Of a stretch of 64,000 nucleotides of DNA, positions 30,376-48,909 are shown piece by piece. The number at the start of each line of letters is the position of its first letter. Positions within the stretch are counted from its first letter, which is position 1. The stretch is taken from positions 6,719,101-6,783,100 of the forward strand of contig NC_134035.1 of the NCBI RefSeq assembly GCF_964204645.1. Direction: 5' to 3'. A model generated the notes under the pieces. The model made no database searches, was not told the DNA's origin, and worked only from the letters and a program-made list of their open reading frames with translations. The stretch comes from Tubulanus polymorphus. Lineage: Eukaryota > Animalia > Nemertea. Both the position numbers and the translations under genes were made by a program.

Positions 30376-30576
30376 AGTAATTAGAATATGTGGCTTTCAG
30401 GCCAGAGGACGAGAGGACGAGACACCACTCATCACCACAAGTAATTTTTTTCCTAACACTCATCACCACAAGTAATTTTTTTTCCTAATAAATGGGGGAG
30501 AATGAACACCAACTAGAAAACAATAATGTCAATAAGAATCAATATTATTGTCAATATTGTAAAAAATACATCGATA
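30376..30576 (+). repeat. Left terminal inverted repeat of the Polinton-like element
   Basis: Reverse complement of ~46838-47037; homology resumes at ~30864-30956 against ~46748-46840. Confidence 0.95.
30426..30494 (+). promoter_or_regulatory. Tandem CACTCATCACCACAAGTAATTTTTTT boxes + TAAATG initiator upstream of ZnF-PolB
   Basis: The same box recurs on the - strand at 35773-35810, 45988-46024, 46504-46541 and twice at 46920-46987, always leading into a start codon. Confidence 0.85.
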
Positions 30577-30800
30577 CATCTAATAAAACACGACATGAAA
30601 AAACTGCAAATCATATAAAAAATGTAATAGATTTTGAAACTCCAGAAAATTCCAATGAAAGAAAAGAACGATTAGAAAATATGAATGTGAATGAAATAAA
30701 ATGTGAAGTTTGTAATGAATTTATAGTAAAAAGGAAAAATAATAGACATCTCGAATCACAAAAACATTATAAAAATTTAAATAAAAATGTTTTGGATTAG
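30492..30800 (+). CDS. Two-C2H2 zinc-finger polypeptide, probably the frameshift-separated N-terminus of PolB
   Basis: CQYCKKYIDTSNKTRHEKTANH and CEVCNEFIVKRKNNRHLESQKH. Starts at TAAATG. The PolB frame is open from 30785. Confidence 0.75.
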   Translation: MGENEHQLENNNVNKNQYYCQYCKKYIDTSNKTRHEKTANHIKNVIDFETPENSNERKERLENMNVNEIKCEVCNEFIVKRKNNRHLESQKHYKNLNKNVLD

Positions 30801-30874
30801 AATATTTTGATAATAAACCTCAACAAGTAAAAGAATCAACTTCAAAAACTAAATCCATTTCAAATAAACCTTAC

Positions 30875-33800
30875 ATGGAAAATGTTAGAAATTATATTGA
30901 TTCACTAGAAATAAAAGATACAATTGAAATCTTAGAAACATTACATAGTAAAATTGGCCCTGCAGCTATTATATTTAGATTCTTTAAAGGTACAACAATA
31001 GAAGATTATAGTAAATTTAATGAAATAATAGAAAAAATACTAGATTTTATAACAGATGTTGAATATCCAAAAATTAGTATCTCTGGGAAAGTAAGTTTTA
31101 TAAAGTCAGAAGAAAAAATGGATTATAATATTCAAACACACTCTGAAGAAATAATTTCAAAAACACAAATAAAAGAGAAGTTAGAAAAAATATTAAATGA
31201 ATTTAAACGTCATATTGAAGAAAGATATTTTGAGGGTTCTGGCTTAACATTGAATGAAATTATATATTTAGATTTAAATGTTTATAATACAAAAAGAAAT
31301 AAAACATCAAAAAGTAATAAAATGTTTAAAAATGATTCAAACTTTATAACAGAAAAAGATATGAAAGCATCAAGTTATATCAAATTACCATTTATAACAA
31401 AAGCAGTAATAAATATTCAAAATGAAGATAATAAATGTTTTCTATGGTCAATTATTAGTTGCTTACATCCAACAGAAGAACATGTTTATAGAATAACAGA
31501 TTACCGGAAATATGAAACATTATATACAATTGATCAATATCCAGTAACTATAAAAATGATACCCAAAATAGAAAAAATTAATAATTTAAAAATAAATGTA
31601 TTCGAATTAATGCAATTACCAAAGACAAAAGGTGAAAATATTAAAGATTATACATTGGAAGCTTTATATTTAACAGAATATTATGATGATGAAAATGCTA
31701 TAGATTTGTTATATTACAAAAAAGATGAAAATGAACATTATATGTGGTTAAAACAAATTGATTTATTCTTTAGAACAGAAAGTGATCATCATCGTAAAAT
31801 TTATCTATGTAGAAAATGTTTATCTAAATTTATGACTGAGAATACATTATTAAAACATAAAGAATTATGTGATAATAAAGATTTTTGTAAATTAATAATG
31901 CCAACAGAAAAAGATTATAAATTGAAATTTACTAATCATAAATTTAAAAATATTGTTCCATTTGTAATTTATGGGGATTTTGAATCGTTGAATAAAGAAT
32001 TAACTGATCAAGATAGAAAAGAAATATATAACAAAAAGCAATTATTAAAATCAATGGATAAAGGAAATGATTTAAATGAAGACATAATACAAGACCCACC
32101 AATTATAAATACAATTAAAAAAGTTCATCAAAGAGCTGCTGCTTATGGAATTTATATAAAATCAAATTATCCCGAATTATATGAAAGTCAATATATTTCT
32201 TTTAGAGGTGAAAATGTAGTTAATGATTTTTGTGATAAAATTATTGAATTAGAAAGTGATTTTGCAAAATTATTAAACAAAAATAAAAGAATAGTTATGA
32301 CAAAAGAAGATGAAATTGATTTTAATTATGCAACTCATTGTTGTTATTGTGAAAAACGTTTTTATTCATTTGATAAAAGAGTTAGAGATCATGATCATTT
32401 AAATTCAAAATATCGTGGAGCTGCTCATGAAGATTGTAATTTACAAGCTAAAAAAGTAAATTTCGTACCAATATTATTTCATAATTTATCAGGCTATGAT
32501 ACCCATCTATTTATAAAACAATTATCGGGAAAGTTGGGCGCAATTAATCAAGAAATAGAAGAATATAATGCTATGAATGAAGAAAATGTAAGAAAATATG
32601 ATTTTAAACTATTAGCTAAAACATCTGAAAATTATATTTCATTTCAATTTGGTTGCATTAGATTTTTAGATTCTTATAGATTTCTAGCAAGTTCATTAGA
32701 TAATTTATCAAAATCATTAGTTGATAATGATTTTATTATAACTCGATATTATTATCCAAATGACCAAGATTTTAAATTATTGAGATATAAAGGCGCAATT
32801 CCTTATTCATTTTATAAAACACATGATGATTTTAATGTAACAGAATTATTAAAAGATCAATTTTATGATAAATTAAAAGAGGAGTATGTGAAAGACAAAG
32901 TTTTTGATAGAACATTAAATATTTGGAACCATTTTAAGATGAAAAATCATGGCGAATTAGTTGATTTATATTTAAAATCAGATGTTATGATATTGGCTGA
33001 CATATTTGAAAAGTTTAGAGAAGTTAATTTGAATCATTTTAATGTTGATCCTTGTTATTGCTACTCTAGTCCTGGTTTAACCTGGCAATGTGGTTTAAAA
33101 TATACAAATGTAGAATTAGATTTATTAAAAGAACCAGATATGGTTTTATTATTTGAAAAATCAATTAGAGGTGGAATTAGTGGTGTTATGGGAGATAGGT
33201 ATTTTAAAGCAAATGATGAATATAAATTATTATATATTGACGCCAATAATTTATATGGTTGGGCAATGATGCAACCTCAACCATATAAAAATTTTATATT
33301 AACAGAAGTTGAAAATGATGATAAAACTGATTGGGAAAGCGCAATTGCGAGTTTAAAAGATGAAGCACCAATTGGTTATTTCTTTGTAGTTGATTTAGAA
33401 TATCCTGAAAATATAATGTTTAAAACAAGAAACTTACCTTATTGCCCAGAACATTTAACTGTAGATGATAGTTATTTAAGTGAATACCAGAAGAAAATAA
33501 AACCGAAAGATCATGTTTTTACAGAAAAATTAATACTTACTCAAAATAATAAATATAATTATATTGTTCATTATAGAATGTTAAAATTTTATCTAAAACA
33601 AGGAATGAAATTAAAGAAAGTACATAGATATATTGAATTTAATCAATCGAAGTGGTTAGAAAAATATATAGATTTCAATACTCAACAGAGAACAATATCA
33701 AAAACTGATTTCGAAAAAGATTTTTTTAAATTGATGAACAATAGTTTTTATGGAAAAACTTGTGAAAACATAAGAAATAGAAATGATATTGAGTTAGTAA

Positions 33801-34489: not shown

Positions 34490-35775
34490 AACATAAAATC
34501 AATATCATCAAACTCGAAATCGTTATTAGCTTCTTCATTTTCAGGTTCTTCTTCCATTCCATTTTTCTCATTTAAATAAAGTTCTATCTTGTTCCACATT
34601 TCATCTCGCTCTCTTTGTTTCTTTTTGTTTGTTAATTCATCAAATGGAATTATAATATCTAGGTTTAAATAATTTACAATCTTATTTAAAAAAAATTCAT
34701 AATTTATTGAATCTGTTATTCTATTTTCTAAATGATACATTAATATTTGTTTAAATATTTTTTTTATATTTTCCATATCTTCTTCTGTTAATTTAGGTTT
34801 TTCATAATAATCGTTAAATAATAAATATAAATACATTTTCTTTTGTTTTGTGTTAAATGTTGGTGGAATAATTGTTTTTATAATATCTTTTTGAGTTATT
34901 TCACCATTTTTATTTTCTATTATTTTCATTTTTTCAAGCCATTGCATATATTCTGGTGTATGATCTTCTATAGAAAATATTTTAAAAATTTCATCAAGAT
35001 AATTTAATTTTGGATCTATAAGAAAATTTCTAGTTTTTTCTTCATCCCATAAATTCTTTTGCCATCCACAATCAACACAAAATAACACAGTACCTTCTTG
35101 TCTTAAGGTCGCATAACTACATTGTGGACATTTTTGTTTATAATTTATTGGTAATAGATCTTCATTAAGCTCTTGGTATTTTCTTACGTTTTCTTTGTGT
35201 TTTATTGTTCTATTATGTAGATTTGAATTACTTGTTGTAATAATCAATTTACAATATTTACAATAATATGTTTTTCTTGTTAATTCATTATATTGTTTTT
35301 CTAACTTTTCAACTGTTTCTTCATTATCTGGTAACGTTTTCTCATATTTTATTTTTTCTAATAAATTATTTTTTCTTTCATTGAATTCAGTTTCAAATTT
35401 ATTAGAAATTTTATCTATGTGTGCTTTACTAAATTGATGATTCTCCCAATCTTCTATATTGTCAGGGCTATATTTTACTTGACAAGGCTCACAGAAATTA
35501 TTCTTTACATTATTCTTGTTATAAAATAAGAAAGGTCTTTTCCAAATAACTTCAGGTTCAACTTCAGCAGAATTATTATCAACATTAGCTGTTGCCCCAT
35601 TAATTCTACACTTCTCTGAATGTTTTTTAACATAATTTCTTGAGAATAATTGATTACATTTTGGACAGTTTATTTTAGGGGGTTTATAATTTTCATCATG
35701 TTTTTTCATATGTCGAGCCTTATTACTTTTTCTTAGAAGTTCACCACAAATTTCACATGCTATCTTCTCATCCAT
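34486..35775 (-). CDS. Multi-zinc-finger protein with a C-terminal poxvirus A2L/VLTF3-like late transcription factor domain
   Basis: Several N-terminal CxxC...H fingers, then CPQC-x13-CVDC, KTRNFLIDPKLNYL, EKPKLTEEDMENIKKIFKQI, SINYEFFLNKI and DEMWNKI, colinear with the VLTF3 pattern as I recall it. Confidence 0.72.
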   Translation of the reverse strand: MDEKIACEICGELLRKSNKARHMKKHDENYKPPKINCPKCNQLFSRNYVKKHSEKCRINGATANVDNNSAEVEPEVIWKRPFLFYNKNNVKNNFCEPCQVKYSPDNIEDWENHQFSKAHIDKISNKFETEFNERKNNLLEKIKYEKTLPDNEETVEKLEKQYNELTRKTYYCKYCKLIITTSNSNLHNRTIKHKENVRKYQELNEDLLPINYKQKCPQCSYATLRQEGTVLFCVDCGWQKNLWDEEKTRNFLIDPKLNYLDEIFKIFSIEDHTPEYMQWLEKMKIIENKNGEITQKDIIKTIIPPTFNTKQKKMYLYLLFNDYYEKPKLTEEDMENIKKIFKQILMYHLENRITDSINYEFFLNKIVNYLNLDIIIPFDELTNKKKQRERDEMWNKIELYLNEKNGMEEEPENEEANNDFEFDDIDFMF

Positions 35776-35835
35776 TTATTAGGGAAAAAAATTACTTGTG
35801 GTGATGAGTGTAATTTTTTTATGTTATAAATAATG
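35773..35835. promoter_or_regulatory. Compact divergent promoter between the VLTF3-like gene and the structural gene block
   Basis: A - strand box-type promoter sits back to back with + strand TAATTTTTTTATGTTATAAATAATG. Confidence 0.75.
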
Positions 35836-36629
35836 GTAGAATTAAAAGAATACAGAATATTTGTTGATTCAAGAAGACTTACAAATTATAAATCTCATAA
35901 TTTATTAGTTAAATTAGATAGAGAATTTAAGAATTGTGTAGATTTAAAATTAGTAAATATAAGTTTATGTAATTCTTTTTATAATATATCAGATAAAACT
36001 GATGAACATAGAAGCCTTCTTATTTTTGATAAACTTGAAAAAAATGGATTCAACTTATGCTTACACCAGGATTATATGATTTAGAAACATTAGCGCAAGA
36101 AATTAATAGAAAAGCTCGGATTAGATTAGGTAATGGTAATTCCAAATTTAATATTAAATTCATAAAAAGTGAGAGCTTTAATAAAATTAAAATAAAGCTT
36201 GATGATGAACTTATTAAACTTGATAAATCTGATCCATTGATGACAAGAAGACATACTTACACGGTAAAAAAACCTATAGCTAAACTATTAGGAATTACTC
36301 CAAATCAATTTGGTGGAAACAAACACGGTAACTCAAATATAATACCTTTTACACACTTTTATATTTATTGCAATTTAATCGATCCTACAAAAACATTCGA
36401 AGCAACTAAAGATACAACATGTAATTCTAGTATATTAAACATTTTACCGCTAAAAAATGTTAAACAATTTGGAACGCAAATAAATTATAATTTAACTGAA
36501 TGTGATTTCAAACCTTGTATTCCTAAATTTAATAATTTTAAATTAGAAATAAGAAATCATAATGGATACTTAATTGATTTGAACAACTTTCCTGTAATTT
36601 ATGAATTAGTTATAAGATGTAAAGAGTAA
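35833..36629 (+). pseudogene. Minor capsid protein (penton, single jelly-roll), split by a -1 frameshift at the A7 run 36038-36044
   Basis: N-terminal IFVDSRR...LVNISLCNSFYNI, central PGLYDLETLAQEIN, FYIYCNLI, and C-terminal FKLEIRNHNGYLIDLNNFPVIYELVI follow the Polinton/PLV penton pattern. One extra A joins ORFs 35833-36084 and 36057-36629. Confidence 0.75.
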
Positions 36630-36645
36630 TTTTTTCACTATATAA

Positions 36646-37002
36646 ATGAATATAACTGTTGGACCGAGTATATGTTTTGGGTTTGATTTTAAACGTGAGA
36701 AAGAAATGAAATTTAACATTAATGATGTAATAACACATATCAAAAATGTTGTATTTTCTAATGAAACAACATTTGAGTATGAAACAACAATTGATAAAGA
36801 AACTTTAAATGTAGAAAAGATTACTAATTTAATTAGAGAATCTTTAAGATTTTATGAATTAGATGAAGATTTTATAATCGATGATATTAAAAAAATAATA
36901 ATTGAAATATATACAAATGAAACTAGTAATAAAATAAATGTTGAAATAATCATAAATAAGTTAACTAAATATTTTGAAGATAGTAATTTTTTTGATAAAT
37001 AA
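36646..37002 (+). CDS. Hypothetical viral protein (118 aa)
   Basis: TAAATG start, tightly packed in the gene array; no motif recognised. Confidence 0.7.
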   Translation: MNITVGPSICFGFDFKREKEMKFNINDVITHIKNVVFSNETTFEYETTIDKETLNVEKITNLIRESLRFYELDEDFIIDDIKKIIIEIYTNETSNKINVEIIINKLTKYFEDSNFFDK

Positions 37003-37224
37003 ATGAGTGATAATAAGTGGATAATAACTGGATTATATAATGGTGCATTACTATCAGTTGGAACGGTTGGTTATTCAATGGTATTAAAAAAAGTATTCAA
37101 AATGGGAAGTGTTAATGTTGATAGATTTGATATAAATGATATTTTAAAGTTAACGTTAGCAGTTACTTTATCTAATTTAACTATTGATTATTTGGAAAAA
37201 CAAAAATATATTCCTCCCATATAA
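37003..37224 (+). CDS. Small hydrophobic viral protein (73 aa)
   Basis: TAAATG start abutting the previous stop; two hydrophobic stretches. Confidence 0.7.
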   Translation: MSDNKWIITGLYNGALLSVGTVGYSMVLKKVFKMGSVNVDRFDINDILKLTLAVTLSNLTIDYLEKQKYIPPI

Positions 37225-37248
37225 ATGCATAATTTTTTTGTTAAATAA

Positions 37249-37671
37249 ATGGCTTCTGCAATTATAACTATTATAGGATCGGCAATCGTTAACGCTTTAG
37301 CATTTACAGGTGGTGGTTATTTATTTAAACATATTGATAAAAATAGTTCATTAGGAGAACAAAGAAGACATAATTTAGCGTTAGAGAAATACAATAAAGC
37401 AGCAGAAGAATATAGAGAAAAAAGACAAAACTATATGGATTACATCAATAAAGAATTATATGATCAGAAGATTTCACATAGAGATTTTCAATCAGTTGAT
37501 GATGCAATGAGTTTATATAACGCAGTAACAAATAAAGAAAAATTACATCTATACAAACCCAAATTATCAGATTATTATACCCCAAGTAAAGAACAACAGA
37601 AATATGAAATAATATGGATTTTAGGTGGAACTGTTATTGTTATATTTGTTGCTTATAAGTTTACTAATTAG
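37249..37671 (+). CDS. Membrane-associated viral protein (140 aa)
   Basis: Hydrophobic N-terminus (MASAIITIIGSAIVNALAFTGGG), coiled coil, C-terminal TM (IIWILGGTVIVIFVAY). Confidence 0.78.
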   Translation: MASAIITIIGSAIVNALAFTGGGYLFKHIDKNSSLGEQRRHNLALEKYNKAAEEYREKRQNYMDYINKELYDQKISHRDFQSVDDAMSLYNAVTNKEKLHLYKPKLSDYYTPSKEQQKYEIIWILGGTVIVIFVAYKFTN

Positions 37672-37690
37672 TAATTTTTATTCTAAATAA

Positions 37691-38119
37691 ATGGAAGATA
37701 AAGTTGATAGTATTGATATTATTCCTCATGATATAAATAAAACTAAATTAAAAACATATTTAGAAAAACAAATATTAGAATTTGAAAGTGACTTAAAGAT
37801 AAAAAAGAAAAAATATTTAAAAAGTAAAATTATATATTATATAAGTGGTTCGGTTACAATTAGTTCTGTAATAACATTTCTAGCAATATTCAGTCCATTA
37901 ACACCTTTAGCTATATCAATTGGTGTATTAGGATTAAGTTCAAGTGTTTTAACTGGTATAAGTTCAAAATTAAATATAAAAAGTAATAAAGAAAAAATCA
38001 AAACTAATATAAAAGAAATTAATAAATTAAAGAATACACTAGATTATATAATAAGTTTAAATGGTCATATAACAGTTGAAGAACAAGATAAATTATTAAA
38101 AGAATTAATAAATTATTAA
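37691..38119 (+). CDS. Two-TM coiled-coil viral protein (142 aa)
   Basis: Hydrophobic hairpin IIYYISGSVTISSVITFLAIF-SPLTP-LAISIGVLGLSSSVLTGI flanked by charged helices. Confidence 0.78.
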   Translation: MEDKVDSIDIIPHDINKTKLKTYLEKQILEFESDLKIKKKKYLKSKIIYYISGSVTISSVITFLAIFSPLTPLAISIGVLGLSSSVLTGISSKLNIKSNKEKIKTNIKEINKLKNTLDYIISLNGHITVEEQDKLLKELINY

Positions 38120-38135
38120 TTTTTTAATTATATAA

Positions 38136-39551
38136 ATGGCAGATAGTTTTCCAAAAGCTTTCCAATATAATAAATCAATTAAATATAATATTCCAGCAAT
38201 AGATTTTAATAAAGATATTACATATAGAAATGAAGTTTTAGATTCATTAACTAATTTAGAAATTTATGTTACTGAAACTAATAATTTTAATGCAAAGATG
38301 GAAAATATATTTCATGTATATTTAATTAATTTTAAAAAATTGAAAGATGAAAAACAATGGTTATTAAAATCTAATATGAAGTATTGGCAGAACCAATTAA
38401 ATTTTGCTGTTTATTGTGCAACAACAGGATGTGGAATTAGTTGGAATGATCATTTGAATAATTCTAAATATAAATTAATTCAAAGTTTATTTAGATTTCA
38501 TACATACTTTCAAATCAGAATAATATTAAATGAATTAGAGTGTGCTTTACCAGGATCTAGGTATTTCAAAGAATTAGATAATAATATCAATTTATCAAAG
38601 TTTTATAAAATTTGTAATGAATTTAATATAGATATAAATAATTCTGATTTTAGAACAAAAATTGGAACAATAAGATCACTTCCTTGCCCTAAAAAGATTG
38701 CAGAATATTGTGCACTTCCCATACCATCTAATAGTTTTTATAATATCTGTAATAAAAAATTAGGTTATGGTAAAATAGAAACAAAGGATTTAGAAACATT
38801 AAATTTCAATAAATTACCAAAATTTTATGATAATTTAAAACAAGAAAACAATAATGGTTGGGTTTATTTTATTTTAGAAAATAGTGAAGGTTTTACTAAA
38901 TCAGGTATAGAAAGAATAAATCAATCTATTAGAACTTATTTGATTTGTATTCTAGGATCACAAGTTGAAACAAGATCACCGATAATTGGAAATTTGAATA
39001 CATCATTCGATACACAAAAACAGTTTAAAGTTTTATTTGAAGATTCCATACATAATGATAAAAATAGATCGATTCCAGAAAACATTATAAGATATCAAAA
39101 TTATTTAGATAAATCTCATGTAAGACTTAATTATTGTATAGGCCCTAATCTATTAATTATTTCTAATGATTTAGTATTAAAGATGGGAAACATAATTGGT
39201 TATAATAATCTAATTAAAACTGCAACAATAAATAATTCATTTGGGTTAAATGATATAAATAAAAAGATTATTACTGCTCCAAAATTAATGGAAGGTGAAA
39301 AAAATAAAAAACACATTCAATCAACTGAAACTAAAACTAAGAATATTAAATTAAATAATGATTCTAAAATAAAAGATTATAATACATCAGAAAATAATAG
39401 AACTGATAATGGTGTCATATGGCACCCACACGGTGATATTCAACATGATATAATTAAACTAAATGATGATAATAAATCCCATGAAAATACTAAATTAGCT
39501 ATAACTTGTATAGGAATTGTAATCGGAGGAATATTATATTTTAAATTTTAA
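38136..39551 (+). CDS. Large viral protein with C-terminal membrane anchor (471 aa), function unknown
   Basis: Intact ORF with TAAATG start, Cys-containing core (QLNFAVYCATTGCGIS) and C-terminal TM (LAITCIGIVIGGILYF). Confidence 0.82.
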   Translation: MADSFPKAFQYNKSIKYNIPAIDFNKDITYRNEVLDSLTNLEIYVTETNNFNAKMENIFHVYLINFKKLKDEKQWLLKSNMKYWQNQLNFAVYCATTGCGISWNDHLNNSKYKLIQSLFRFHTYFQIRIILNELECALPGSRYFKELDNNINLSKFYKICNEFNIDINNSDFRTKIGTIRSLPCPKKIAEYCALPIPSNSFYNICNKKLGYGKIETKDLETLNFNKLPKFYDNLKQENNNGWVYFILENSEGFTKSGIERINQSIRTYLICILGSQVETRSPIIGNLNTSFDTQKQFKVLFEDSIHNDKNRSIPENIIRYQNYLDKSHVRLNYCIGPNLLIISNDLVLKMGNIIGYNNLIKTATINNSFGLNDINKKIITAPKLMEGEKNKKHIQSTETKTKNIKLNNDSKIKDYNTSENNRTDNGVIWHPHGDIQHDIIKLNDDNKSHENTKLAITCIGIVIGGILYFKF

Positions 39552-39568
39552 TTTTTTTTATTATATAA

Positions 39569-40999
39569 ATGGATGTAGAAGGTGTAGAAGATATTGGAAT
39601 GGATCCTTTGGATGAACCTGGTATAACTGATGAACAACCACCTGATTTAGATGAAACAAGTTTTAATGATGGTAATGAACCAGAATATAACAATAATTTA
39701 AATATGCCTGATTATATTAAAAATGCTTAATCACAATTAAATCCTGAAAATTTAGACCCAGATTTAGTAAAACAAGATTTAGATAATTTAAACAAAATAC
39801 CTAAATTAGAAGATTTAATTGAAAAATCTAATTTTAACATAAATGATGAAGACGTTGGACTTTTAGCAGATCAATTAAAATTTTTAGATAATGGTAAATG
39901 TTATTATCGTTTGAAAGGTGATTATTATATTGATATCACTTATAAAAATAATAAAAATAAAATATTATCAGAATCAACTTTAGAAAAATTAAAACCAGAT
40001 AGAATTAAAATAATAAGTAATAGTAATGAAATAACTGATGTTACACAAAAAGAAATAGATGATAATATAGATGTATTTAAACAAAGAATTAATGAATTAT
40101 TTGAAATAATCAAAAAGAAATCAGAAACAGAAACAACTTCTGAACAGAATATAACTTCCAAAACTAGTAAACTTAGATCAAATAAAGTTCCAATTGAAAA
40201 ACTTTTACCGAATGGATTACTTGATGCAACAGATCAAGAATTAGAAGATTTAGATATATTTTCTGATAAAGCAATTAGAGAAATTATTAGTATAAGACTT
40301 GCATCTGATAAAATTGCGCATGATAAAAGTATAAGAGATTTTAAAATTAGAACTTTAGAAAAAGAATTAACTGATAAAAATAAAGAAATAGAACAATTAA
40401 AGTCTGATTTAGATCATCAAGTAATTGATGAAATAGAATATAGGCAAAAAGAATTACGTTTAGAAAAAGAAAAAGATGATTTAGAATATAACATAGAATT
40501 ACAAAAAGAAGAAATTAAATTATTATTAAAATCATATGATTATAATATTAATAGATTAAAAGTTATTTTTAAAGATTTGTTGATTAAACCAAATTCTGAA
40601 ATATCATTAAAAGATAGAATAAGATTATTATTTAAATTAGAAGGAATAACAATTCTTTCAATTCTAACAGCTGTAACTATGTTATTTACAACAATTGGTT
40701 TAGCTATATCAAATGCTTTGAAATCTACTCCTCCTCCAAATAAACCGGATAAACCTCCAGGTAATAATTCTATACAAGATAAAGTTAAAGATGGTTTAAA
40801 GAAATTAGCAAAATATTTATGGGAACTATCAAAGAAATCTGCTGCAGCATTACCAGGAGTTATTGCATCAATTGTTGGTTTTATATTGAAATCTGCAGGA
40901 AACATTATTAACTTTGCTGCTGAACATATTATTTTATTTTTAATCACAGTTGTAAGTGCTATTATTTTTGGGTTAGTGAATATGATAAAAAATAAATAA
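39569..40999 (+). pseudogene. Coiled-coil protein with hydrophobic/amphipathic C-terminal helices (~476 codons), one premature stop at 39728-39730
   Basis: The TAAATG start at 39569 is in frame with ORF 39911-40999; a single TAA interrupts it. C-terminal GITILSILTAVTMLFTTIGLAI...ALPGVIASIVGFIL...IILFLITVVSAIIFGLV. Confidence 0.8.
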
Positions 41000-41019
41000 T
41001 TAATTTTTTTGTTAAATAA

Positions 41020-42267
41020 ATGAGTGGGAGTTATATAAGTCCTTCGAAGAATCATAGAATATCTAATGCTATTAAAGCAGAAAGATTACATCATATAATT
41101 ACTCATAACCCTTCAAATATTAATCCCGATGAAACTTTATATGTTAGAATTCCTAGATTAACACAAAATACTTTTTATGTTCCAAACAGTATTTATTTAT
41201 CAGCTGATATAAAAGTAATCGGTAATAATAATAATTATGTTGTTGATAATGTTGGAAGATATTTGATTAAAAAGTTAACAATAAAGATTGGTCCAGAAAC
41301 AGTTTTCTCATTAGATGATTATAATTTATTTATGCATTATAAAGATTTATGGTTAACTAAAGAAAACAGAAATAATATGATATTTCAGGGTATTCAATCA
41401 GAAAACCAAAATAAATTAAGATCAGAAGCTAATAGCGCAATATTAACAAATGATGTAGATAAATTGATAAAAAGTATATATGGAAGCAAATATAAAATTC
41501 CATTAGACTTTGAATTGATAAATAATAATGCACCTTTATATAAATACGCAATTCAAGAAGATATTATATTTGAGATAACATTTGCTCCTGTAAATGAAAT
41601 TGTATTATCTAGCGTTAATAAAGATATGAGTTATAAATTATCGAATATATGTTTAGAATATAATACAGTAACTGATGAAAATATTGCTAGAACAATTCAA
41701 ACTCAATACAATCAAGGATTTTCATTATTATATGATTATATTGATAAATTTAAAACTGTAACTATTAATGCAAATGATGAAATAATTAATGAGAATATTA
41801 ACTTTCCTAGAAGATCTAATAAAGGTATATTAATATTTTTTACTATTGGAACGTATACTAATGGCGCAATAAATGTTGATAATTATTATAATCCTGAAAT
41901 AACAAAAGTAGAAATAACTATCGAAGGTATAGCAAATAAAATATTTTGTCAAGGAATGAGAATGATAGATCAATGGGTAGAAATTAAAAAACATTTTATG
42001 AATGAAAAAATAAAATCATTTGAAAATTGTAACATTAATCAAATTGATTATTATACCGGTAATAAATATGCATTATGGTTAGATTTTAGAACAACAGAGG
42101 ATAATTCATTACATGGTTCTGGAAAAAAACTACAAAACACAAAAGATGGAATACAATTATTCATGAAAAAGAATAAAGGAATCAAAAATTTTAAAATGCA
42201 CATTTATATTATATCTGACGCGCAATTAAATATTGTAAATTCACAATTAGATAGTATTCAATATTAG
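41020..42267 (+). CDS. Probable major capsid protein (double jelly-roll)
   Basis: 415 aa, beta-strand-rich, no TM. Segments such as LYVRIPRL, NVGRYLIKKLTIKIG, YKIPLDF, YKLSNICLEY and YALWLDFR resemble Polinton-like MCPs, and it is the only candidate of this size in the element. Confidence 0.72.
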   Translation: MSGSYISPSKNHRISNAIKAERLHHIITHNPSNINPDETLYVRIPRLTQNTFYVPNSIYLSADIKVIGNNNNYVVDNVGRYLIKKLTIKIGPETVFSLDDYNLFMHYKDLWLTKENRNNMIFQGIQSENQNKLRSEANSAILTNDVDKLIKSIYGSKYKIPLDFELINNNAPLYKYAIQEDIIFEITFAPVNEIVLSSVNKDMSYKLSNICLEYNTVTDENIARTIQTQYNQGFSLLYDYIDKFKTVTINANDEIINENINFPRRSNKGILIFFTIGTYTNGAINVDNYYNPEITKVEITIEGIANKIFCQGMRMIDQWVEIKKHFMNEKIKSFENCNINQIDYYTGNKYALWLDFRTTEDNSLHGSGKKLQNTKDGIQLFMKKNKGIKNFKMHIYIISDAQLNIVNSQLDSIQY

Positions 42268-42297
42268 AAATATAAAGTTAAAATTAAGCGTATATAA

Positions 42298-43425
42298 ATG
42301 GGTGGTAAAAAATCTCCTAATACTAAAGAACAATATTTAAGAAATTTATATTACAACCCTGAGAGTTCGGTTGCTTATTCTTCTACCAAACATATATGGC
42401 GTCAAGTAAAACAAGATAAATTAGATAAGATAATCCCACAAAATTTAGTTAAATATAAAGATATAAATGAATTTATGTTAGAACAACCAACATATACAAC
42501 ACATAAAAAAATTGTTAGAAAATATAAAACTCGTAAAACTATGGTAAGTTATGTAGATCAACAGTGGCAAGGAGATTTAATTGATATAAAAAATGTTAAG
42601 AAAGATAATGATGATTATTGGTGGTTATTGAATATAATTGATATTTTTAGTCGTTATGTATGGAGCTTCCCACTTTATAGAAAAGATGCTGTACAAACAT
42701 CAAATGTTTTAAGAAAATTTCTTTCGGATGATAAACTAAAACCAGAAAAAATACAATTTGATGATGGAAAAGAATTTGATAATTCACTTGTTCATGGACT
42801 TTTAGATTTTCATAATATTAAATATTTTTCAACAAAATCGGATAAAAAAGCAGCAGTTGTTGAACGATTTAATAGAACATTAAGAACAAGAATGTGGAAA
42901 TATTTTACAGCAAATAATACTTTTAAATGGATTGATGTTTTACCAAAATTGATAGAAGGATATAATACTTCTTATCATTCTTCTATTGGAATGAAACCTA
43001 TTGATGCTAGAAAACCTGAAAATGCTGAAATTGTTTGGAATAATTTATATGGAGCATTTCTTGTAGATGATTTTGGTGAACCTAAATTTAAAGTTGGTCA
43101 AAATGTTAGAATTTCTAAGTATAAAAAGATATTTGACAAAGGATACGATCGAAATTTTACTAGAGAAATATATAAAATAAAAAAGGTAATAACAACAAAA
43201 CCATATGTCTATAAATTAGAAGATTTAGATGGTGAAGAAGTTGATGGTTACTTTTACGAAGAAGAATTAAGTTTAACTACTGAAAATCTAGAACAAGAAT
43301 ATAAAATTGAAAAAGTACTAAAAACAAAAACTGTTAAAATAAAAAAATATTCTTTAGTAAAATGGGTTGGATGGCCAGATAAATTCAATGAATGGATATT
43401 ATCAAGTAAAATTAAAAATATATAA
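42298..43425 (+). CDS. Retroviral-like (RVE) DDE integrase with C-terminal chromodomain
   Basis: WQGDLID, IIDIFSRY, QFDDGKEF, KAAVVERFNRTL, YNTSYHSSIGMKP, FKVGQNVRIS, and chromodomain YKIEKVL...LVKWVGWPDKFNEWI. Confidence 0.96.
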   Translation: MGGKKSPNTKEQYLRNLYYNPESSVAYSSTKHIWRQVKQDKLDKIIPQNLVKYKDINEFMLEQPTYTTHKKIVRKYKTRKTMVSYVDQQWQGDLIDIKNVKKDNDDYWWLLNIIDIFSRYVWSFPLYRKDAVQTSNVLRKFLSDDKLKPEKIQFDDGKEFDNSLVHGLLDFHNIKYFSTKSDKKAAVVERFNRTLRTRMWKYFTANNTFKWIDVLPKLIEGYNTSYHSSIGMKPIDARKPENAEIVWNNLYGAFLVDDFGEPKFKVGQNVRISKYKKIFDKGYDRNFTREIYKIKKVITTKPYVYKLEDLDGEEVDGYFYEEELSLTTENLEQEYKIEKVLKTKTVKIKKYSLVKWVGWPDKFNEWILSSKIKNI

Positions 43426-44034
43426 ATGAATAAGGAATTATTTATATTTGAGCCTCATAATATGTTAATTTCTGGTGTAACAAATTGTGGAAAAACTTAT
43501 TTTATATTAAATTTATTAGAAACTATTTACAAAAACTATTTTGATAATATAGTATTATTTTGTCCAACATATGAATTTAATCAAACTTATGATAGAAATA
43601 TTACTAGAAATAATAAATTTATTATATTAGATCCTAAAACAGTAAAAGAAAATTTAGATAATTGTATAAAAATAGCAATTGATATTTATAAAGGATCAAA
43701 TACATTATTTATCATAGATGATTGTGCTAATCTACATGATTCAAAAGTTAGAGAAAGTGAGTTATGTTATTTAGCTTTTTCTGGTAGACATTTTGGGATA
43801 ACAACTTGGGTTTTAAATCAAAAATATAATTCAATTGTTAAAAACTTTAGAGAAAACATTAGATTTCTAGTTTTATTCTACAATAAAGATAGAAAATCGA
43901 TGAAAAATGCACTTGAGGAAAATGATATTATTCCACATGATTTACATAATGAATATATGGATAAGTTGAAAAATATTAAAAGATCAAAATTACTATTTAG
44001 ATTACAACACCCATTTAAATATGAATTTATTTAA
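43426..44034 (+). CDS. A32-like FtsK/HerA DNA packaging ATPase
   Basis: Walker A GVTNCGKT, Walker B LFIIDD, arginine finger GRH, conserved Q (VLNQ). Confidence 0.93.
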   Translation: MNKELFIFEPHNMLISGVTNCGKTYFILNLLETIYKNYFDNIVLFCPTYEFNQTYDRNITRNNKFIILDPKTVKENLDNCIKIAIDIYKGSNTLFIIDDCANLHDSKVRESELCYLAFSGRHFGITTWVLNQKYNSIVKNFRENIRFLVLFYNKDRKSMKNALEENDIIPHDLHNEYMDKLKNIKRSKLLFRLQHPFKYEFI

Positions 44035-44312
44035 ATTCAACTAGCTTGTTAATCTAATTGAATTCTAGTTACATTCTAGTTGAATTCTAGTTGTTAGTAG
44101 TTGAAACAAAAATCAACTAGATTTAACAATATTTCAACTAGCTTGTTAATCTAGTTTAATTCTAGTTGAATTCTAGTTGAATTCTAGTTGTTAGTAGTTG
44201 AAACAAAAATCAACTAGAATGTAACTAGAAATAAACAAAAACAACAATATTTCAACTAGCTTGTTAATCTAGTTGAATTCTAGTTACATTCTAGTTAAAT
44301 TCTAGTTGCAAC
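44035..44312. repeat. Intergenic array of 11 bp (T)TCTAGTTGAA(T) iterons in both orientations, three higher-order units
   Basis: TTCAACTAGCTTGTTAATCTA(G/A)TT starts at ~44036, ~44132 and ~44250, each followed by tandem TTCTAGTT(GA/AC/AA)A copies. Confidence 0.9.
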
Positions 44313-44339
44313 AACACAACTAATTTGTTTGTTATATAA

Positions 44340-44945
44340 ATGGGAGGTGAAAAGAAAATAAAATCTAAAAATGGTGATGTTCCAATTGAAAAAACTTTAG
44401 ATGATTTAGGAATAACAGAAACAAAATTAACTCCAGATGATGGTGCTTTAAATAATGTTACAACAAATAATAGTTATGAATATTATCTTTATTGTAAACA
44501 TCAATTAGAAATATTAATAGCATCTGGAAAATGTAAAAATTTTGTCGGTAAAAATTTAACTTATAATGAATTAGATACAATGAAATCAGATGAAATTATT
44601 AGATTATTTAAGATTTATGAATCCGCGAGAACAGCTAGAATTAATGACGCGATATCAGAAAATGTAGTAAAAGGTTATAGTAAATTATGTAATTATATAC
44701 TACCAATTGAAGATGAAAATAGATTATATTCCGATTTAAAAAATGATTATTTAGTTATGACTGAATTAAATAAATGGATTGGATATTTATCATTTCAATT
44801 AGGTGGATTTATGACATTATTATCAACTGGAGTTATAACATTTTCAAATATTGAAAGTAAAAATATTTCTATAATAAATGAGCGAGGTGAAAGAAGTGAA
44901 GGAATTACCTGTGAAGAAAAAACCGAGAACTCAGAAACAAATTGA
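44340..44945 (+). CDS. Hypothetical viral protein (201 aa)
   Basis: TAAATG start, intact ORF, late hydrophobic segment WIGYLSFQLGGFMTLLSTGVITF. Confidence 0.78.
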   Translation: MGGEKKIKSKNGDVPIEKTLDDLGITETKLTPDDGALNNVTTNNSYEYYLYCKHQLEILIASGKCKNFVGKNLTYNELDTMKSDEIIRLFKIYESARTARINDAISENVVKGYSKLCNYILPIEDENRLYSDLKNDYLVMTELNKWIGYLSFQLGGFMTLLSTGVITFSNIESKNISIINERGERSEGITCEEKTENSETN

Positions 44946-45246
44946 ATGGTCTCGACAATTAGGAATTAAATCACAAGAATATAAAAAAGCTGTAAAAGAA
45001 AAAATAAGTAATAAAAATGTTAATAAAAATGGTGAAAATATTGTTATTTCTACTCCTTCTGATAGTAGAATATTTGATAAATATTTATATTTTACAGTTG
45101 GATTTGTAATTGTATTCATTTTGATTGGGTGTAATTGGTATAAGAAATCAAATAAAATTCATGATATTAGTAATTCTGAAACAACTGCTATCAAAAATGA
45201 AAGTACTTCTGAAATTCCAAAATTTATAATAAAAAAAATGGATTAA
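44878..45246 (+). CDS. Basic N-terminus + single-TM viral protein (122 aa)
   Basis: TAAATG start overlapping the previous gene; KKKPRTQKQ; TM YLYFTVGFVIVFILIGC. Confidence 0.75.
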   Translation: MSEVKEVKELPVKKKPRTQKQIEWSRQLGIKSQEYKKAVKEKISNKNVNKNGENIVISTPSDSRIFDKYLYFTVGFVIVFILIGCNWYKKSNKIHDISNSETTAIKNESTSEIPKFIIKKMD

Positions 45247-45315
45247 TATTTTAGAAAAAAAAACAAAAAAATAATTAAATATCTCACTGTGGGGCAATTA
45301 AATTATCCAGATAAG

Positions 45316-45990
45316 TCATTTCGGATCCTTGATATCAAATTCCTCAACGTATCGTTCATTATTTGGATTATTGTTCCATAATTCAATAAATTTTTTTGTT
45401 TTTTCCAGTTGATCTAAATATAATTTCATATCTAGTTTGTTAGATTTAATTATATTTTCTTTCTTTTCTAAAGGTCTTAAATTTCTCCAGTTCCAGATTA
45501 GCTTCTTATCATATTCATCATTCATATCAAATTTAGAAATCGGCAACACATGATCAATATGAAAGTATTCACCATAATTATCTATATTCATTTTATCATC
45601 GAATTGAAATATAATCCATGATTTGAGAAATTCATCTGAACAACCCAACAAATTAGTTAATGTTTCTGAATGCGTTTCTTTGTTGAATAATTGTGTTGAT
45701 CTAGACCTTAAACATTGTTTTAATCTAAAATTAAGATCTGTTTTATATTTTTCTCTCATATATTTTGTCATATAATCATTATAAGATTCTCTATTATCTT
45801 CTCGATATTGTTTGGTATATAGTTTAAAACAAGTTTTACAGCAATTTTTAAAACCATCTTTGCTAATCTTACGCTTACTAAATTCTGTAAATGATTTATC
45901 TAATTCACATTTAGAACACTTCTTGTAGTATATGTTTATAACACCAGTGTTATTTGTAATATTGATAGTTTGTGGTTGTTCTGGTTCCAT
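45316..45990 (-). CDS. Zn-finger + HNH endonuclease (giant-virus homing-nuclease type)
   Basis: KKCSKC...EF...KDG...CKTC, then FHIDHVLPIS...NWRNLRPLEKKENIIKSNK. Confidence 0.85.
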   Translation of the reverse strand: MEPEQPQTINITNNTGVINIYYKKCSKCELDKSFTEFSKRKISKDGFKNCCKTCFKLYTKQYREDNRESYNDYMTKYMREKYKTDLNFRLKQCLRSRSTQLFNKETHSETLTNLLGCSDEFLKSWIIFQFDDKMNIDNYGEYFHIDHVLPISKFDMNDEYDKKLIWNWRNLRPLEKKENIIKSNKLDMKLYLDQLEKTKKFIELWNNNPNNERYVEEFDIKDPK

Positions 45991-46179
45991 TTATTAGGAA
46001 AAAAAATTACTTGTGGTGATGAGTATGAAAAAAAAAAAAATTGAATATCTCACTACTTTTGTCTATCACTGTGTGGGTGCTGTTTATGGCACCATCTATG
46101 TGGAGCAATTAAATTGTCCAGATAAGTCATTTCGGATTCTAGATATTCATTATTTTTATTAATTTATTTTTTAAAAAAT

Positions 46180-46506
46180 TTAATCAACAATTTCTAAATC
46201 ATGATGACCGTCTTCATTTTTCCCATGATATATTATTTTAAATCCTACTAAATCTTTCAATTCCTCCATACTCAATGAAACCCATTTATCGGGTAAAAAC
46301 ACTTTAAATTCTCGCGATGTACTAACATTACAGTAGCTTAAATTAGCTGATACTTTCTCTCCATATTTAGTTTTTATCTTTTCTAATTTCAATATTTTAT
46401 GTTCAATTTCTTTTGTAACATCAACTAACTTTTTTATTTCAAATTGTTTTTTTGCTGGTTTTATTCTGTTATTTATTGTTGCTAAGAATGCTTTTCTATC
46501 TCCCAT
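46180..46506 (-). CDS. Small basic protein (108 aa), possibly OB-fold nucleic-acid binding
   Basis: Same promoter box as the PolB unit; TKYG...KVFLP beta-strand pattern. The fold is inference only. Confidence 0.65.
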   Translation of the reverse strand: MGDRKAFLATINNRIKPAKKQFEIKKLVDVTKEIEHKILKLEKIKTKYGEKVSANLSYCNVSTSREFKVFLPDKWVSLSMEELKDLVGFKIIYHGKNEDGHHDLEIVD

Positions 46507-46747
46507 TTATAAGGAAAACAAATTACTTGTGGTGATGAGTGGGGATTACTTCCCCCTATATAACAAGCACGCTATTAACCGTTCTCACCCAAGCCTCACA
46601 GCATCTATTTATCCGGGTACAGTTGACACGCAATCACTGTACTACAGTAATAGCACACACATTAATAACCGTTCTCAGTAGAGACTCACTGTATCGATCT
46701 ATCCACACGCAGCTGTTGTTACGCGCACTCACTGTTTATGTGTGTCA

Positions 46748-47037
46748 CAATTTTACTACGTAATATTTCTAAAATTTCAATTGTATCTTTTATTTCTAAT
46801 GAATCAATATAATTTCTAACATTTTCCATGTAAGGTTTATCGATGTATTTTTTACAATATTGACAATAATATTGATTTTTATTGACATTATTGTTTTCTA
46901 GTTGGAACTCACTCTCTCCCATTTATTAGGGAAAAAAATTACTTGTGGTGATGAGTAGGAAAAAAAAATTACTTGTGGTGATGAGTGGTGTCTCGTCCTC
47001 TCGTCCTCTGGCCTGAAAGCCACATATTCTAATTACT
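46748..47037 (-). repeat. Right terminal inverted repeat of the Polinton-like element
   Basis: Matches the left end except for a 290 bp internal gap. Encodes a short ZnF-PolB N-terminal fusion ORF (46719-46922). Confidence 0.93.
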
Positions 47038-47330
47038 TAAATATAGTAGAAAATTGCATAGCCGGCACTTCAGCTGTGTGGACATGTTCAAATCCCCTTT
47101 TTTTGAAATCAACATCAATTTTTCTAAGACGACTAAATTAAACATACCCGGTTCTGAAAAACTGATTAAGATGATTATTTGAGATTTCCTGTAAACATAT
47201 TAATTGATGATATCTCAACTGCTGAAAAGTGTCTGCAATACTGGTTCTGTTGATGGATACAGCAGTAATTAGTAGAACTGCTGTACCGGTGGCTCAAGTC
47301 CATTATAGCATTGAATATTTCCAGCAGAGA

Positions 47331-47750: not shown

Positions 47751-48830
47751 ATGTCGGATGTTGAGAATGATGTGTGTGAGCCCTTGGCCTTATCTAGGCC
47801 TATGTCACCAACGGCCGGAGCTGCACATCATGACCTCCTGGTTAGTGGGGAGGGTAACCCCTCGTCAAAACTAAAACGTGGCCGTCCAACGAAGATGAAA
47901 GCTGAAAATTTAAAAACATCTGAGGATTCCATCCTTCAGCGCCTGACTGAAGTGATGGAGAGGGTCGTGACGAGAGATGCATCCACCCCGAAAATGCACA
48001 ATATTCCGGCGCCCAAGCCCTATACCATGGGACACAATTTCCGCGTTTGACTCGAAAGGTTTGACGCGTTCGCTGACCTGGCTCAGATTAGTTCTCGCAT
48101 CAACGGGCGCGAACAGCGTAAATCACACCTGATTATGCGACTTGACCATGAGGCATACCAGGCCGTCTCGAACCTACGTCTCGACTCGAGCCTGTCGGCG
48201 GCTATCATCCCGTTTCCAACAAACAAAGACCGTGGATGACTTTAAGATGTTGTTGAAAGGGAGGGACCAAAAGACCACAGAATCTGTGGAACGCTATGCT
48301 GATGAGTTAGTAGAACTGGCAAGGAACGCGTACCCTGGCATTGCCTTCGAGCTACAGGATGAATTGGCCAAAGACCAATTTCTTAAAGGTAATAGCCTAC
48401 CCGTCTTAGCGAAGCAGTCAATGTATGCGGCCCAGCCAAGTTCGTTGGCTGCAGCAGTCGCTCAAGCACGGACTCTGGAAACAGCGAGACGGTTGACTGA
48501 GGGCACGACTCATAAACAAAAAGTATCCGTTAACCAGACCCAGCTCGACTCGAATAGCTCAGCCATAGCCTAACAACTCGACGAATTGAAATCGATGATG
48601 GGAACGCTGATGGCTCGAGTAGGCCATTTGGAAGCAGTTGTTTCTGGTAGGCCTAATGGTAATCGTCGACCGCTTGCTGATGACAAATGTTAGCGTTGCA
48701 GGGATGCAGACCACCCCAAAAACTTATGCCCACAAGTTAAATGCTATAATTGCGGGGGGAGTGGTCATTATTCAAGTAACTGCCACCTACCTAAGGGAAA
48801 CCAGGGAAACGAGAAGCGGGGTTTTTAGGG
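47751..48830 (+). pseudogene. Gypsy gag, several stops/frameshift
   Basis: QKTTESVERYADELVELARNAYP...KDQFLKG capsid-like segment, and CCHC knuckles (C*RCRDADHPKNLC, CYNCGGSGHYSSNC) at ~48690-48785. Confidence 0.85.
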
Positions 48831-48909
48831 GGGCAATGGAAACCCCATCAGGAAATAGTCCCCCTGTACCGCTGTATATACCCCCCCCGCAAGACGTAGG
48901 AAAAATCGG

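Follow-up and report, generated by a model that had tools for sequence, protein, structure and literature searches.

An integrated Polinton-like virus of the nemertean Tubulanus polymorphus with poxvirus-type late promoter motifs: a candidate virophage-like parasite of a pox-like virus

Mavirus and the EMALEs of Cafeteria have no RNA polymerase of their own. According to the accessible part of the source, elements of this type bear the late motif of their helper and are silent without it (PMC8547959). They share with the locus described here an rve integrase, terminal inverted repeats (TIRs), a short target-site duplication (TSD), dozens of copies and a helper late motif, but their host is a protist, their helper belongs to the Mimiviridae, their motif is TCTA, and their reactivation and protective effect have been shown by experiment (PMC8547959). 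Polinton-like viruses (PLVs) linked to entomopoxviruses (AHEV_PLV1/2, CBEV_PLV1 and Ca_PLV1) have been proposed as poxvirus hyperparasites that exchange genes with poxviruses (Barth et al. 2024, PMC11296320, accessible sections). Like the present element, they have a PLV-type capsid, an A32 ATPase and terminal repeats. However, the three co-sequenced ones measure ~12 kb against 16.7 kb here, all four carry an adenovirus-type protease, none of which was found here, and they encode a tyrosine recombinase or none where our element has rve and a DNA polymerase B with protein priming (pPolB). Their association with poxviruses was drawn from co-purification with occlusion bodies, whereas ours is drawn, from sequence alone, from promoters and the late transcription factor VLTF3. 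The present element also has a high copy number. In a term search, the main text of that paper contained nothing on promoters, TAAAT, VLTF or transcription, and its supplement nothing on VLTF.

In the accessible parts of their descriptions, Maverick-Polintons of groups 1 and 2, or adintoviruses (PMC8502044, 10.64898/2026.06.19.733378), resemble the element in having pPolB, rve, A32, a double-jelly-roll (DJR) capsid, TIRs and a 6-bp TSD, and in residing in animal genomes. Group-2-like Mavericks used as controls lack TAAATG at gene starts and have A at -3, whereas in the element no match to the capsid family PF21738, no protease and no phospholipase was found. A subgroup of polintoviruses, including coral ones, bears VLTF3, as the element does; the accessible part of that report describes it as an NCLDV gene, without assignment to poxviruses, and a term search of it found no promoter analysis (PMC11131425). 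The same source places ATPases of animal PLVs outside the Maverick groups, from Octocorallia, Hydrozoa and Bivalvia, near Aquintoviricetes, and names Polinton-N1A_NV and 3_NV. PLVs with a poxvirus association (PMC11296320) and polintoviruses with VLTF3 (PMC11131425) have been described before. Poxvirus promoters in a Polinton were not reported among the titles and abstract openings searched, a view that takes in neither subscription papers nor bioRxiv supplements. The locus bears on three possible modes of life of animal Polintons, namely autonomy, transcription by the host and dependence on a helper.

The window, a stretch of 64,000 nucleotides of T. polymorphus DNA (contig NC_134035.1, positions 6,719,101 to 6,783,100), contains a virus-like element of 16.7 kb with ends AGTA...TACT at 30376 and 47037 (Table 1). 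An earlier note on this DNA had claimed TIRs and a 6-bp TSD, and both were recovered: TAAATA flanks the two ends, and the TIR arms are alike at 94% over ~200 bp and at 96% over a separate 93-bp block. It had also called the element complete, which is right for the overall outline, but three genes are broken in the copy at 30376..47037. The claimed lack of introns is read from the colinearity of the genes with their homologues; the gaps between most adjacent genes are 0-30 nt. Read depth suggests about 50-340 diverged copies, the reads being mostly 90-99% alike, and the CpG observed/expected ratio is 0.56 in the element against 0.82 and 0.93 in its flanks. The element is an integrated, multi-copy Polinton-like virus. 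Rfam and ARAGORN gave no matches on the window.

Table 1. Features of the element and its borders (coordinates in the window).
Feature	Position	Strand	Remarks
Left target-site duplication	30370..30375	.	TAAATA
Left TIR region	30376..30956	+	AGTA end; spans zinc-finger start and first PolB codons
Seven copies of CTCATCACCACAAG	30428, 30459, 35795, 46010, 46526, 46942, 46972 (span 30428..46985)	.	
U1-type zinc-finger ORF, 102 aa	30492..30800	+	TAAATG start
pPolB with endonuclease VII-like insert, 1204 aa	30875..34489	+	PF03175 E 1e-18; PF02945 E 0.017
N-terminal zinc fingers and C-terminal poxvirus-type VLTF3/A2L domain, 429 aa	34486..35775	-	Domain at 34531-35163
Candidate minor capsid (penton) gene	35833..36629	+	Broken into frames of 83 and 190 aa
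Four small ORFs (118, 73, 140, 142 aa)	36646..38119	+	Every start TAAATG
Conserved family gene, 471 aa	38136..39551	+	TAAATG start; Atlas: no match
Conserved coiled-coil protein, hydrophobic C-terminus	39569..40999	+	TAAATG start; internal stop codon
DJR major capsid protein, 415 aa	41020..42267	+	
rve integrase, chromodomain-like C-terminus, 375 aa	42298..43425	+	TAAATG start; PF00665 E 2.5e-9; weak chromo match
A32-like packaging ATPase, 202 aa	43426..44034	+	TAAATG start; Pox_A32 PF04665 E 6e-14
Three copies of 86-97-bp non-coding repeat	44036..44336	.	Internal palindromes
Two overlapping ORFs (201 and 122 aa)	44340..45246	+	Each with TAAATG start
HNH-like protein, 224 aa	45316..45990	-	Homologues in giant-virus-like contig L084, 31% identity
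ORF, 108 aa	46180..46506	-	TAAATG start; homologue in L003
ORF inside right TIR region, 67 aa	46922-46719	-	TAAATG start
Right TIR	46748..47037	-	Without internal block of left arm
Right target-site duplication	47038..47043	.	TAAATA

The pPolB, integrase, packaging ATPase and capsid-like genes of the earlier note were all confirmed, by Pfam and, for the capsid, by fold. Its statement that RNA polymerase is absent also held, by Pfam on 20 ORFs and by tblastn with 337 poxvirus core-region ORFs, although these queries came from 20-kb core regions and small subunits encoded outside them could be missed. The only match of the tblastn search was the VLTF3 gene, and no helper sequence was found in the window. 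Pfam detected no protease family in 20 window ORFs and 40 ORFs of relatives, a search that divergent proteases may escape. The zinc-finger ORF is likely the detached N-terminus of pPolB, since the pPolB of another Polinton (L256) opens with a zinc-finger-like stretch at TAAATG; here a stop and a change of frame separate the zinc-finger start (30492) from the body (30875). The split penton-like gene is conserved and has a 254-aa homologue in L003; its C-terminal pattern suggests a penton, and a PDB profile search with it returned nothing significant. The 140-aa ORF is conserved throughout the capsid family, and Atlas and PDB searches gave no name to the 471-, 201-, 118- and 108-aa proteins.

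A double jelly roll is the modelled fold of the 415-aa ORF (pLDDT 86). Foldseek matched the model to PBCV-1 and iridovirus capsids (E about 1e-16), with NCLDV capsids above mavirus, which came at rank 48. No match to the Maverick-type family PF21738 was obtained at E<=0.1, whereas the controls L246, L247 and L251 match it at E<1e-40; the Sputnik MCP Pfam found nothing in the element and matched the control L260. The element thus has the pPolB, rve integrase, TIRs, 5-6-bp TSD, DJR capsid and A32 ATPase of a Polinton in the broad definition. By Pfam and fold comparison, it shows neither the PF21738 capsid (a family that group-2-like controls match) and adenovirus-type maturation protease of Maverick-Polinton groups 1/2 (Polintoviricetes) nor the capsid and protease of the virophage taxon (Mavirus, Sputnik). 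Two marks of a virophage-like lifestyle are present, a helper-type promoter motif of poxvirus late design and the lack of an own RNA polymerase. A named capsid homologue comes from the bivalve Mactra antiquata (39%). Scanning viral contigs with the capsid gave no relatives; among genome contigs, it gave three short ones that had been binned with bacteria or archaea, are likely contaminants and show TAAATG at 0/13 starts.

The earlier note had placed TAAATG at essentially every start, and this was borne out. The motif occurs at 16 of the 18 listed starts, the misses being the internal PolB ATG at 30875 and the start at 35833, which reads TAAATAATG. With the PolB ATG excluded, the count is 16/17, where 20,000 shuffles gave 1.2 on average and 7 at most, and TAA precedes 50 of the 641 ATGs in the element. 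AT-richness alone as the source of the motif was rejected by the shuffles and by the GC-split comparison given below. Stop-start coupling was rejected because TAA is the stop of the upstream ORF in only 2/71 cases, and a trans-splice acceptor because AG lies within 12 nt of a single start (1/17). A TATA box at -40 to -19 was likewise found at 1/17 starts.

The distribution of the motif was compared between capsid lineages. TAAATG stands at 55/63 starts in a 14-member capsid clade versus 2/335 in 63 other (sister) loci; the clade has an SH-aLRT of 99 in a quick tree of 51/81 loci (capsid >= 380 aa), and L014, L022, L066 and L079 (0/2, 3/5, 1/2 and 2/2 TAAATG) were excluded from both groups. Clade loci with GC>=29% retain it at 20/23 starts, versus 0/44 in other loci with GC<=40%. 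Judged from these sequences, TAAATG is restricted to particular lineages, independently of GC content. The motif persists at 87% of starts over capsids as far apart as ~50% identity and over 20-44% GC, and it provides a sequence criterion sorting lineages (87% versus under 1%). Among control loci, TAAATG was found at 82/203 starts in 11 chordopox-type loci, at 9/20 in the entomopoxvirus-type L086 and at 1/21 in the giant-virus-like L084. The earlier note had named the same motif in Polintons known to be helper-independent as a ground for refutation: three group-2 Maverick-like loci, possibly helper-independent, are without the motif (1/16, 0/15 and 0/14) and do not refute it. In 24 of 25 other pPolB elements the count is 15/258, while L256, an unrelated second Polinton lineage with 38% GC, shows TAAATG at all of its starts (7/7), a finding better accounted for by transcription machinery supplied from outside and shared than by drift in one clade. 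However, L256 has no upstream T-run, VLTF3 was not found in it, and the sister L027 bears VLTF3 yet shows TAAATG at 0/12 starts, all of which counts against a poxvirus-type helper. AATAAA follows 18/61 clade stops versus 6/38 in AT-rich sisters and overlaps the next promoter; the poxvirus early terminator TTTTTNT showed no pattern (7/61 downstream of clade stops).

The sequence around the start points to a promoter of poxvirus late type. Of the clade genes, 56/63 have T at -3 and 45/63 have G at +4, whereas in sister loci position -3 is a purine in 238/335. For a Kozak context, no base at -3 is poorer than T. The clade breaks the Kozak rule that its sisters keep, which contradicts an explanation by translation context. 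Upstream, T reaches its maximum (0.87) nine bases before TAAAT. In chordopox controls the maximum lies at -10 to -8, and T profiles of clade and chordopoxviruses correlate best at a shift of 0 or -1 (r 0.56, 0.48). In late promoters of vaccinia, a T ten bases upstream is conserved (PMC11980589). By its sequence pattern, the T-run with TAAATG has two parts, placed as in the late promoter of vaccinia. In divergent gene pairs, the motifs stand back to back.

The earlier note had made its reading depend on the likeness of the 429-aa ORF to VLTF3/A2L, and this homology proved real, with profile, Foldseek and tree in agreement. The protein scores 61 bits with poxviruses, 32 with chordopoxviruses alone and 3 with non-pox sets, the latter being narrow and chosen by two motifs (15 and 4 rows after dereplication, taxonomy assumed), while shuffles reach at most 2.5. 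Pfam missed VLTF3 in the full-length protein and matched it with the domain alone; the window domain gives 24 bits, under the cut-off of 25. Among 1.84 billion representatives, four matches were obtained, the sole one with Pfam VLTF3 being entomopox-type, and a word-indexed search with the VLTF3 region gave none. The protein comprises a Cys4 zinc ribbon and a helical C-terminal domain, with invariant residues C12, C15, C29, C32, N117, Y155 and W190, and is nearer to poxviruses than to the other NCLDV sampled. In Foldseek, its model matched cowpox A2L best, the alignment behind the model having included entomopox rows. The grouping with poxviruses had an SH-aLRT of 71 with all rows and of 100 after two long rows were dropped, in a second tree that omitted P0163, L027 and 7/15 Megaviricetes-type rows; the trees contain neither asfarvirus nor egovirus sequences, and long branches meet in them. 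As far as these sequences go, the element's VLTF3 is specifically poxvirus-type and forms a deep branch of its own alongside those of the entomo- and chordopoxviruses.

With moderate confidence, we favour the explanation that the element is a Mavirus-like satellite that relies for its transcription on a co-infecting poxvirus-type helper with a cytoplasmic RNA polymerase, and not on the host. The provirus would stay silent until the helper infects the cell. The post-replicative polymerase of the helper would then initiate in TAAAT and slip on the A-run, and the resulting poly(A) leader would replace the T at -3. VLTF3, likely captured from the helper lineage, may boost late transcription or bias it towards the element; since its own gene starts at TAAATG, its role would be limited to amplification or competition after the onset of post-replicative transcription by the helper. 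The pPolB would copy the genome from the TIRs, the ATPase would package it, and the integrase would insert new copies, some of them in the germ line. The motif design, its lineage restriction and the VLTF3 type uphold this part of the earlier note; the helper itself and a redirection of its polymerase by VLTF3 are predictions, and an antiviral benefit to the host is a putative one, by analogy with Mavirus. Several observations count against a poxvirus-type helper. Polymerases are early genes in poxviruses; here polymerase and integrase also start at TAAATG and no early class was found. Vaccinia late transcription involves three factors, A1L, A2L and G8R (PMC5294985), of which the element carries one. 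Moreover, ~50-340 copies fit spread in germ cells more easily than repeated helper infections.

The helper could instead be another large DNA virus with TAAAT-type starts, such as an unsampled member of the Pokkesviricetes or an iridovirus, or a linear element encoding an RNA polymerase; yeast pGKL1 relies on pGKL2. Yeast virus-like elements (linear plasmids) have a TAAAN initiator with slippage (PMC6211774) and ranaviruses have TAAAT upstream of a polymerase gene (PMC5294985), the element's VLTF3 belongs with neither entomo- nor chordopoxviruses but to a third deep branch, and the capsid fold resembles those of NCLDV. We nevertheless regard a non-pox helper as unlikely, because the late design of poxviruses is this very combination, TAAAT joined to the start codon and a T-run ten bases upstream, and because of the VLTF3 scores with pox and non-pox profiles. 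The wiring might also be a relic of an ancestor that was a poxvirus satellite, the present copies having spread or decayed without a helper and kept leftover promoters. The broken genes, the many similar copies and the lowered CpG would accord with such a history. It seems quite improbable, however, as motif retention across diverged capsids implies long selection on the motif, and the integrase, 30 nt from the upstream stop, has no obvious alternative promoter.

If the host drove expression, TAAATG would be either a Pol II initiator of an unusual kind or a signal for translation (an in-frame stop guard, or re-initiation on polycistronic or trans-spliced RNA), with VLTF3 as unrelated cargo. 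In corals, about half of the polintovirus copies show expression of hallmark genes, and the accessible part of the report mentions no helper (PMC11131425). The sister clades are equally compact, and the frequent AATAAA after stops is compatible with Pol II polyadenylation. Against this stand the avoidance of T at -3 by the sisters, the rarity of TAA as an upstream stop, the back-to-back motifs of divergent pairs and the near absence of AG and TATA signals; a poxvirus-type VLTF3 would be left as a coincidence. Host-driven expression is thus, in our view, distinctly doubtful.

Returning to a poxvirus-type helper, its existence would predict a poxvirus-type virus in hosts with no such record in the literature searched, and the element's VLTF3 would be a probe for finding it. 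A wider picture can be offered tentatively, and we hold it rather unlikely in its entirety. Several animal Polinton-like satellite lineages would record, in their promoters and captured late factor, the large DNA virus that they parasitised; the clade would be tuned to a third deep poxvirus lineage, neither chordo- nor entomopox; and germ-line copies would be heritable, infection-triggered anti-poxvirus elements, an animal counterpart of Mavirus defence. In the sister L027, TATA starts go together with a VLTF3 outside the pox type, which suggests that this lineage changed its helper. Should the copies be inducible, animals would join protists in having a heritable defence of virophage style.

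Finally, the copies of CTCATCACCACAAG are confined to the TIRs and to positions upstream of non-structural genes. This repeat is a candidate for a second promoter class or a binding site.

The element differed from its flanks in base composition (20-26% GC versus approximately 40%). Its termini read AGTA...TACT, TAAATA adjoined both sides, and the TIR arms matched at 94% over about 200 bp and at 96% over another 93 bp, in agreement with the TIRs and 6-bp TSD described in the earlier note. The gene families listed there were also recovered: pPolB, an rve integrase and an A32 packaging ATPase are encoded, and the 415-aa ORF is predicted to fold as a double jelly roll, nearest to PBCV-1, iridovirus and other NCLDV capsids. 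This capsid, of which a bivalve homologue exists, did not match the Maverick family PF21738, though three control elements matched strongly. The bivalve homologue and the decayed LTR retrotransposon in the right flank point to an animal host. No protease was found among the ORFs of the element and its relatives. The description of the element as complete holds for both ends, with TIR and TSD, but not for the genes, three of which are damaged in the window copy (the PolB start, a candidate penton and the gene at 39569).

TAAATG was present at 16 of the 17 gene starts, the exception reading TAAATAATG, and at 16/18 when an internal PolB ATG was counted. When the upstream 40 bases were shuffled, 1.2 starts carried it on average and never more than 7. 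The motif does sit at essentially every start. As a composition test, 80 metagenome loci that encode this capsid family were collected. A quick tree (51 of 81 loci) placed the element in a 14-member capsid clade (SH-aLRT 99). Conserved starts carried TAAATG in 55/63 cases in the clade versus 2/335 in 63 other loci, counts that are not independent events since the loci are related; four loci with partial capsids were excluded from both groups. Within set GC ranges, the motif was found at 20/23 starts in clade loci (29-44% GC) versus 0/44 in other loci (26-40% GC). Genes of the AT-rich sisters L017, L019, L055, L081 and L082 often begin with T, three to six A and ATG; these TAAAATG-like starts could be due to Kozak context, or to an initiator related to TAAATG. 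NCBI lists a 54%-identical capsid (P0046 cluster) under several Bartonella assemblies. The contigs concerned are short and likely host DNA, and may indicate that the clade has a different carrier, possibly an arthropod.

The sequence context of TAAATG suggests a promoter rather than a translation signal. A purine occupied position -3 in 238/335 sister starts; clade starts had T there in 56/63, with G at +4 nonetheless in 45/63. Such a combination is expected if the T is absent from the mRNA, as in vaccinia, whose polymerase is described as slipping on the initiator to give a poly(A) leader (PMC6211774). The TAA triplet was the stop codon of an upstream ORF in just 2 of 71 cases, and divergent gene pairs had adjoining motifs in opposite orientation, no more than about 30 bases apart. 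An A-then-T block was found upstream, T reaching a frequency of 0.87 nine bases before TAAAT in the clade. In the control, 11 dereplicated chordopox-type loci, TAAATG occurred at 82/203 starts and T was most frequent at -10 to -8; vaccinia late promoters are described as conserving a T at ten bases upstream (PMC11980589). TAAATG marked 9/20 starts in an entomopoxvirus-type locus and 1/21 in a giant-virus-like one. Clade and chordopox T profiles correlated best at a shift of 0 or -1, with modest coefficients (r 0.56 and 0.48, 17 positions).

The likeness of the 429-aa ORF to the poxvirus late factor VLTF3/A2L, proposed at first reading, was borne out. Its C-terminal 211 residues matched Atlas VLTF3 clusters at 0.96 and reached 24 bits against Pfam PF04947, just below the cut-off of 25. 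Profiles built without the element's sequences gave this domain 61 bits when made from poxviruses, 32 when limited to chordopox and 3 when made from non-pox sets (shuffles ≤2.5); the order was reversed for the VLTF3 of L027, a sister of the same capsid family outside the clade (5 pox, 20 non-pox). In the Foldseek ranking of the predicted fold, cowpox A2L came top and entomopox proteins held places three and five, before Megaviricetes VLTF3s, a lead of only 2-3 orders of E-value obtained with a model whose alignment contained entomopox rows. In trees, the element's three VLTF3 sequences grouped on a separate deep branch next to entomo- and chordopoxviruses, the pox grouping being supported at 71 with all rows and at 100 minus two long rows; long branches meet in these trees, and asfarviruses and egoviruses are absent from the rows. 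When 1.84 billion proteins were searched without an index, four matches were returned: two zinc-finger fusions like that of the window, one with a start nearly identical to an ORF of clade member L003, a 281-aa protein, and an A2L with 63% identity to a gene in a presumed Amsacta moorei entomopoxvirus record. Promoter and pox-type VLTF3 are two independent lines of sequence evidence, with clean controls, for the proposed pox wiring.

Protist virophages are already known to share promoters with their helpers. PLVs co-purifying with entomopoxvirus occlusion bodies have been published (PMC11296320), as has VLTF3 in polintoviruses (PMC11131425, PMC8502044). In its available text, the former report describes PLVs with a protease and without rve, unlike the window element, and contains no promoter or VLTF analysis. 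No report of poxvirus promoters in a Polinton was found among titles and abstract openings (subscription journals and bioRxiv supplements lying outside this scope).

The motif was also counted in other Polintons. Among 25 pPolB-bearing viral contigs without a match to the element's capsid, 24 had TAAATG at 15 of 258 pooled starts; three group-2 Maverick-like elements among these 24 lacked such wiring (1/16, 0/15 and 0/14). The remaining one, the unrelated Polinton L256 (38% GC), carried it at 7/7 starts; together with the clade, this places TAAATG wiring in at least two lineages. L256 has a different ATPase, a zinc-finger-led pPolB and no upstream T-run, and VLTF3 was not found in its 9 kb; a putative protease-like domain is fused to its rve integrase.

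In one DNA run labelled with the same species, read depth was 136-940 over the element and 2.8 in the single low-depth flank bin, giving ratios of 49-341 (median 116) with that one bin as denominator. Most mapped reads showed 90-99% likeness, and the element is a large, diverged family. The structural genes were covered about 2-3 times as deeply as polymerase, VLTF3 and integrase, as expected if the structural module is common to more copies; consequently, window-type VLTF3 need not be in every copy.

We consider the element to be probably a Mavirus-like satellite of a pox-type helper. The precedent is that of Mavirus and the EMALEs, described as carrying their helper's late motif and as silent without the helper (PMC8547959). 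The provirus would stay silent up to the point at which post-replicative machinery of the helper transcribes from the TAAATG promoters. Late transcription would not be started by the element's VLTF3, whose own gene has a TAAATG start, but would be raised or biased by it. Particles would next be made with pPolB, ATPase and capsid, and further copies would be inserted by the integrase. An antiviral role may be suggested, by analogy alone. However, no helper sequence was found when poxvirus core-region ORFs were compared with the window, the element has just one of the three late factors, it occurs in many copies, and a nuclear provirus would need some way of reaching the cytoplasmic factory; all of this counts against a satellite.

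Dependence on a non-pox helper seems unlikely. The sister L027 encodes a non-pox-type VLTF3 of 165 aa and has TATA 7-20 bases upstream of 9/12 starts (a raw count); the pattern is similar to the TATATA late motif of asfarvirus type and may reflect a different helper. Relic wiring is improbable in our view, and expression driven by the host equally so.

Features of the window and of related loci
Feature	Position	Remark
Element	30376-47037	
Structural genes	36555-39739, 40377-42287	
Integrase	42298-43425	
Three 86-97-bp repeats with internal palindromes	44036-44336	only long internal intergenic region
48-bp direct repeat (92%)	45288-45335, 46099-46146	3' ends of two minus-strand genes near right end
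CTCATCACCACAAG, seven copies	30428-46985	only in TIRs and upstream of non-structural genes
Decayed Gypsy-like LTR retrotransposon	47751-52944	right flank, from ~700 bases beyond element
GC-rich blocks	12000-17000, 20600-25500	
L256	1-9034	
L027	1-9360	
L027 VLTF3	5082-5579	
Deoxynucleoside kinase, L003	10340-10981	PF01712
Deoxynucleoside kinase, L007	2898-3380	PF01712

The GC-rich blocks look like further decayed retroelements and gave no Pfam match. The CTCATCACCACAAG motif is absent from clade relatives. The integrase shared about 40% with its counterparts in other Polinton lineages (L246, L247, L255 and L256), against about 26% with those of capsid sisters outside the clade, which points to module exchange. 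A deoxynucleoside kinase is encoded by two clade members. Finally, the 48-bp direct repeat is a possible termination or recombination site.
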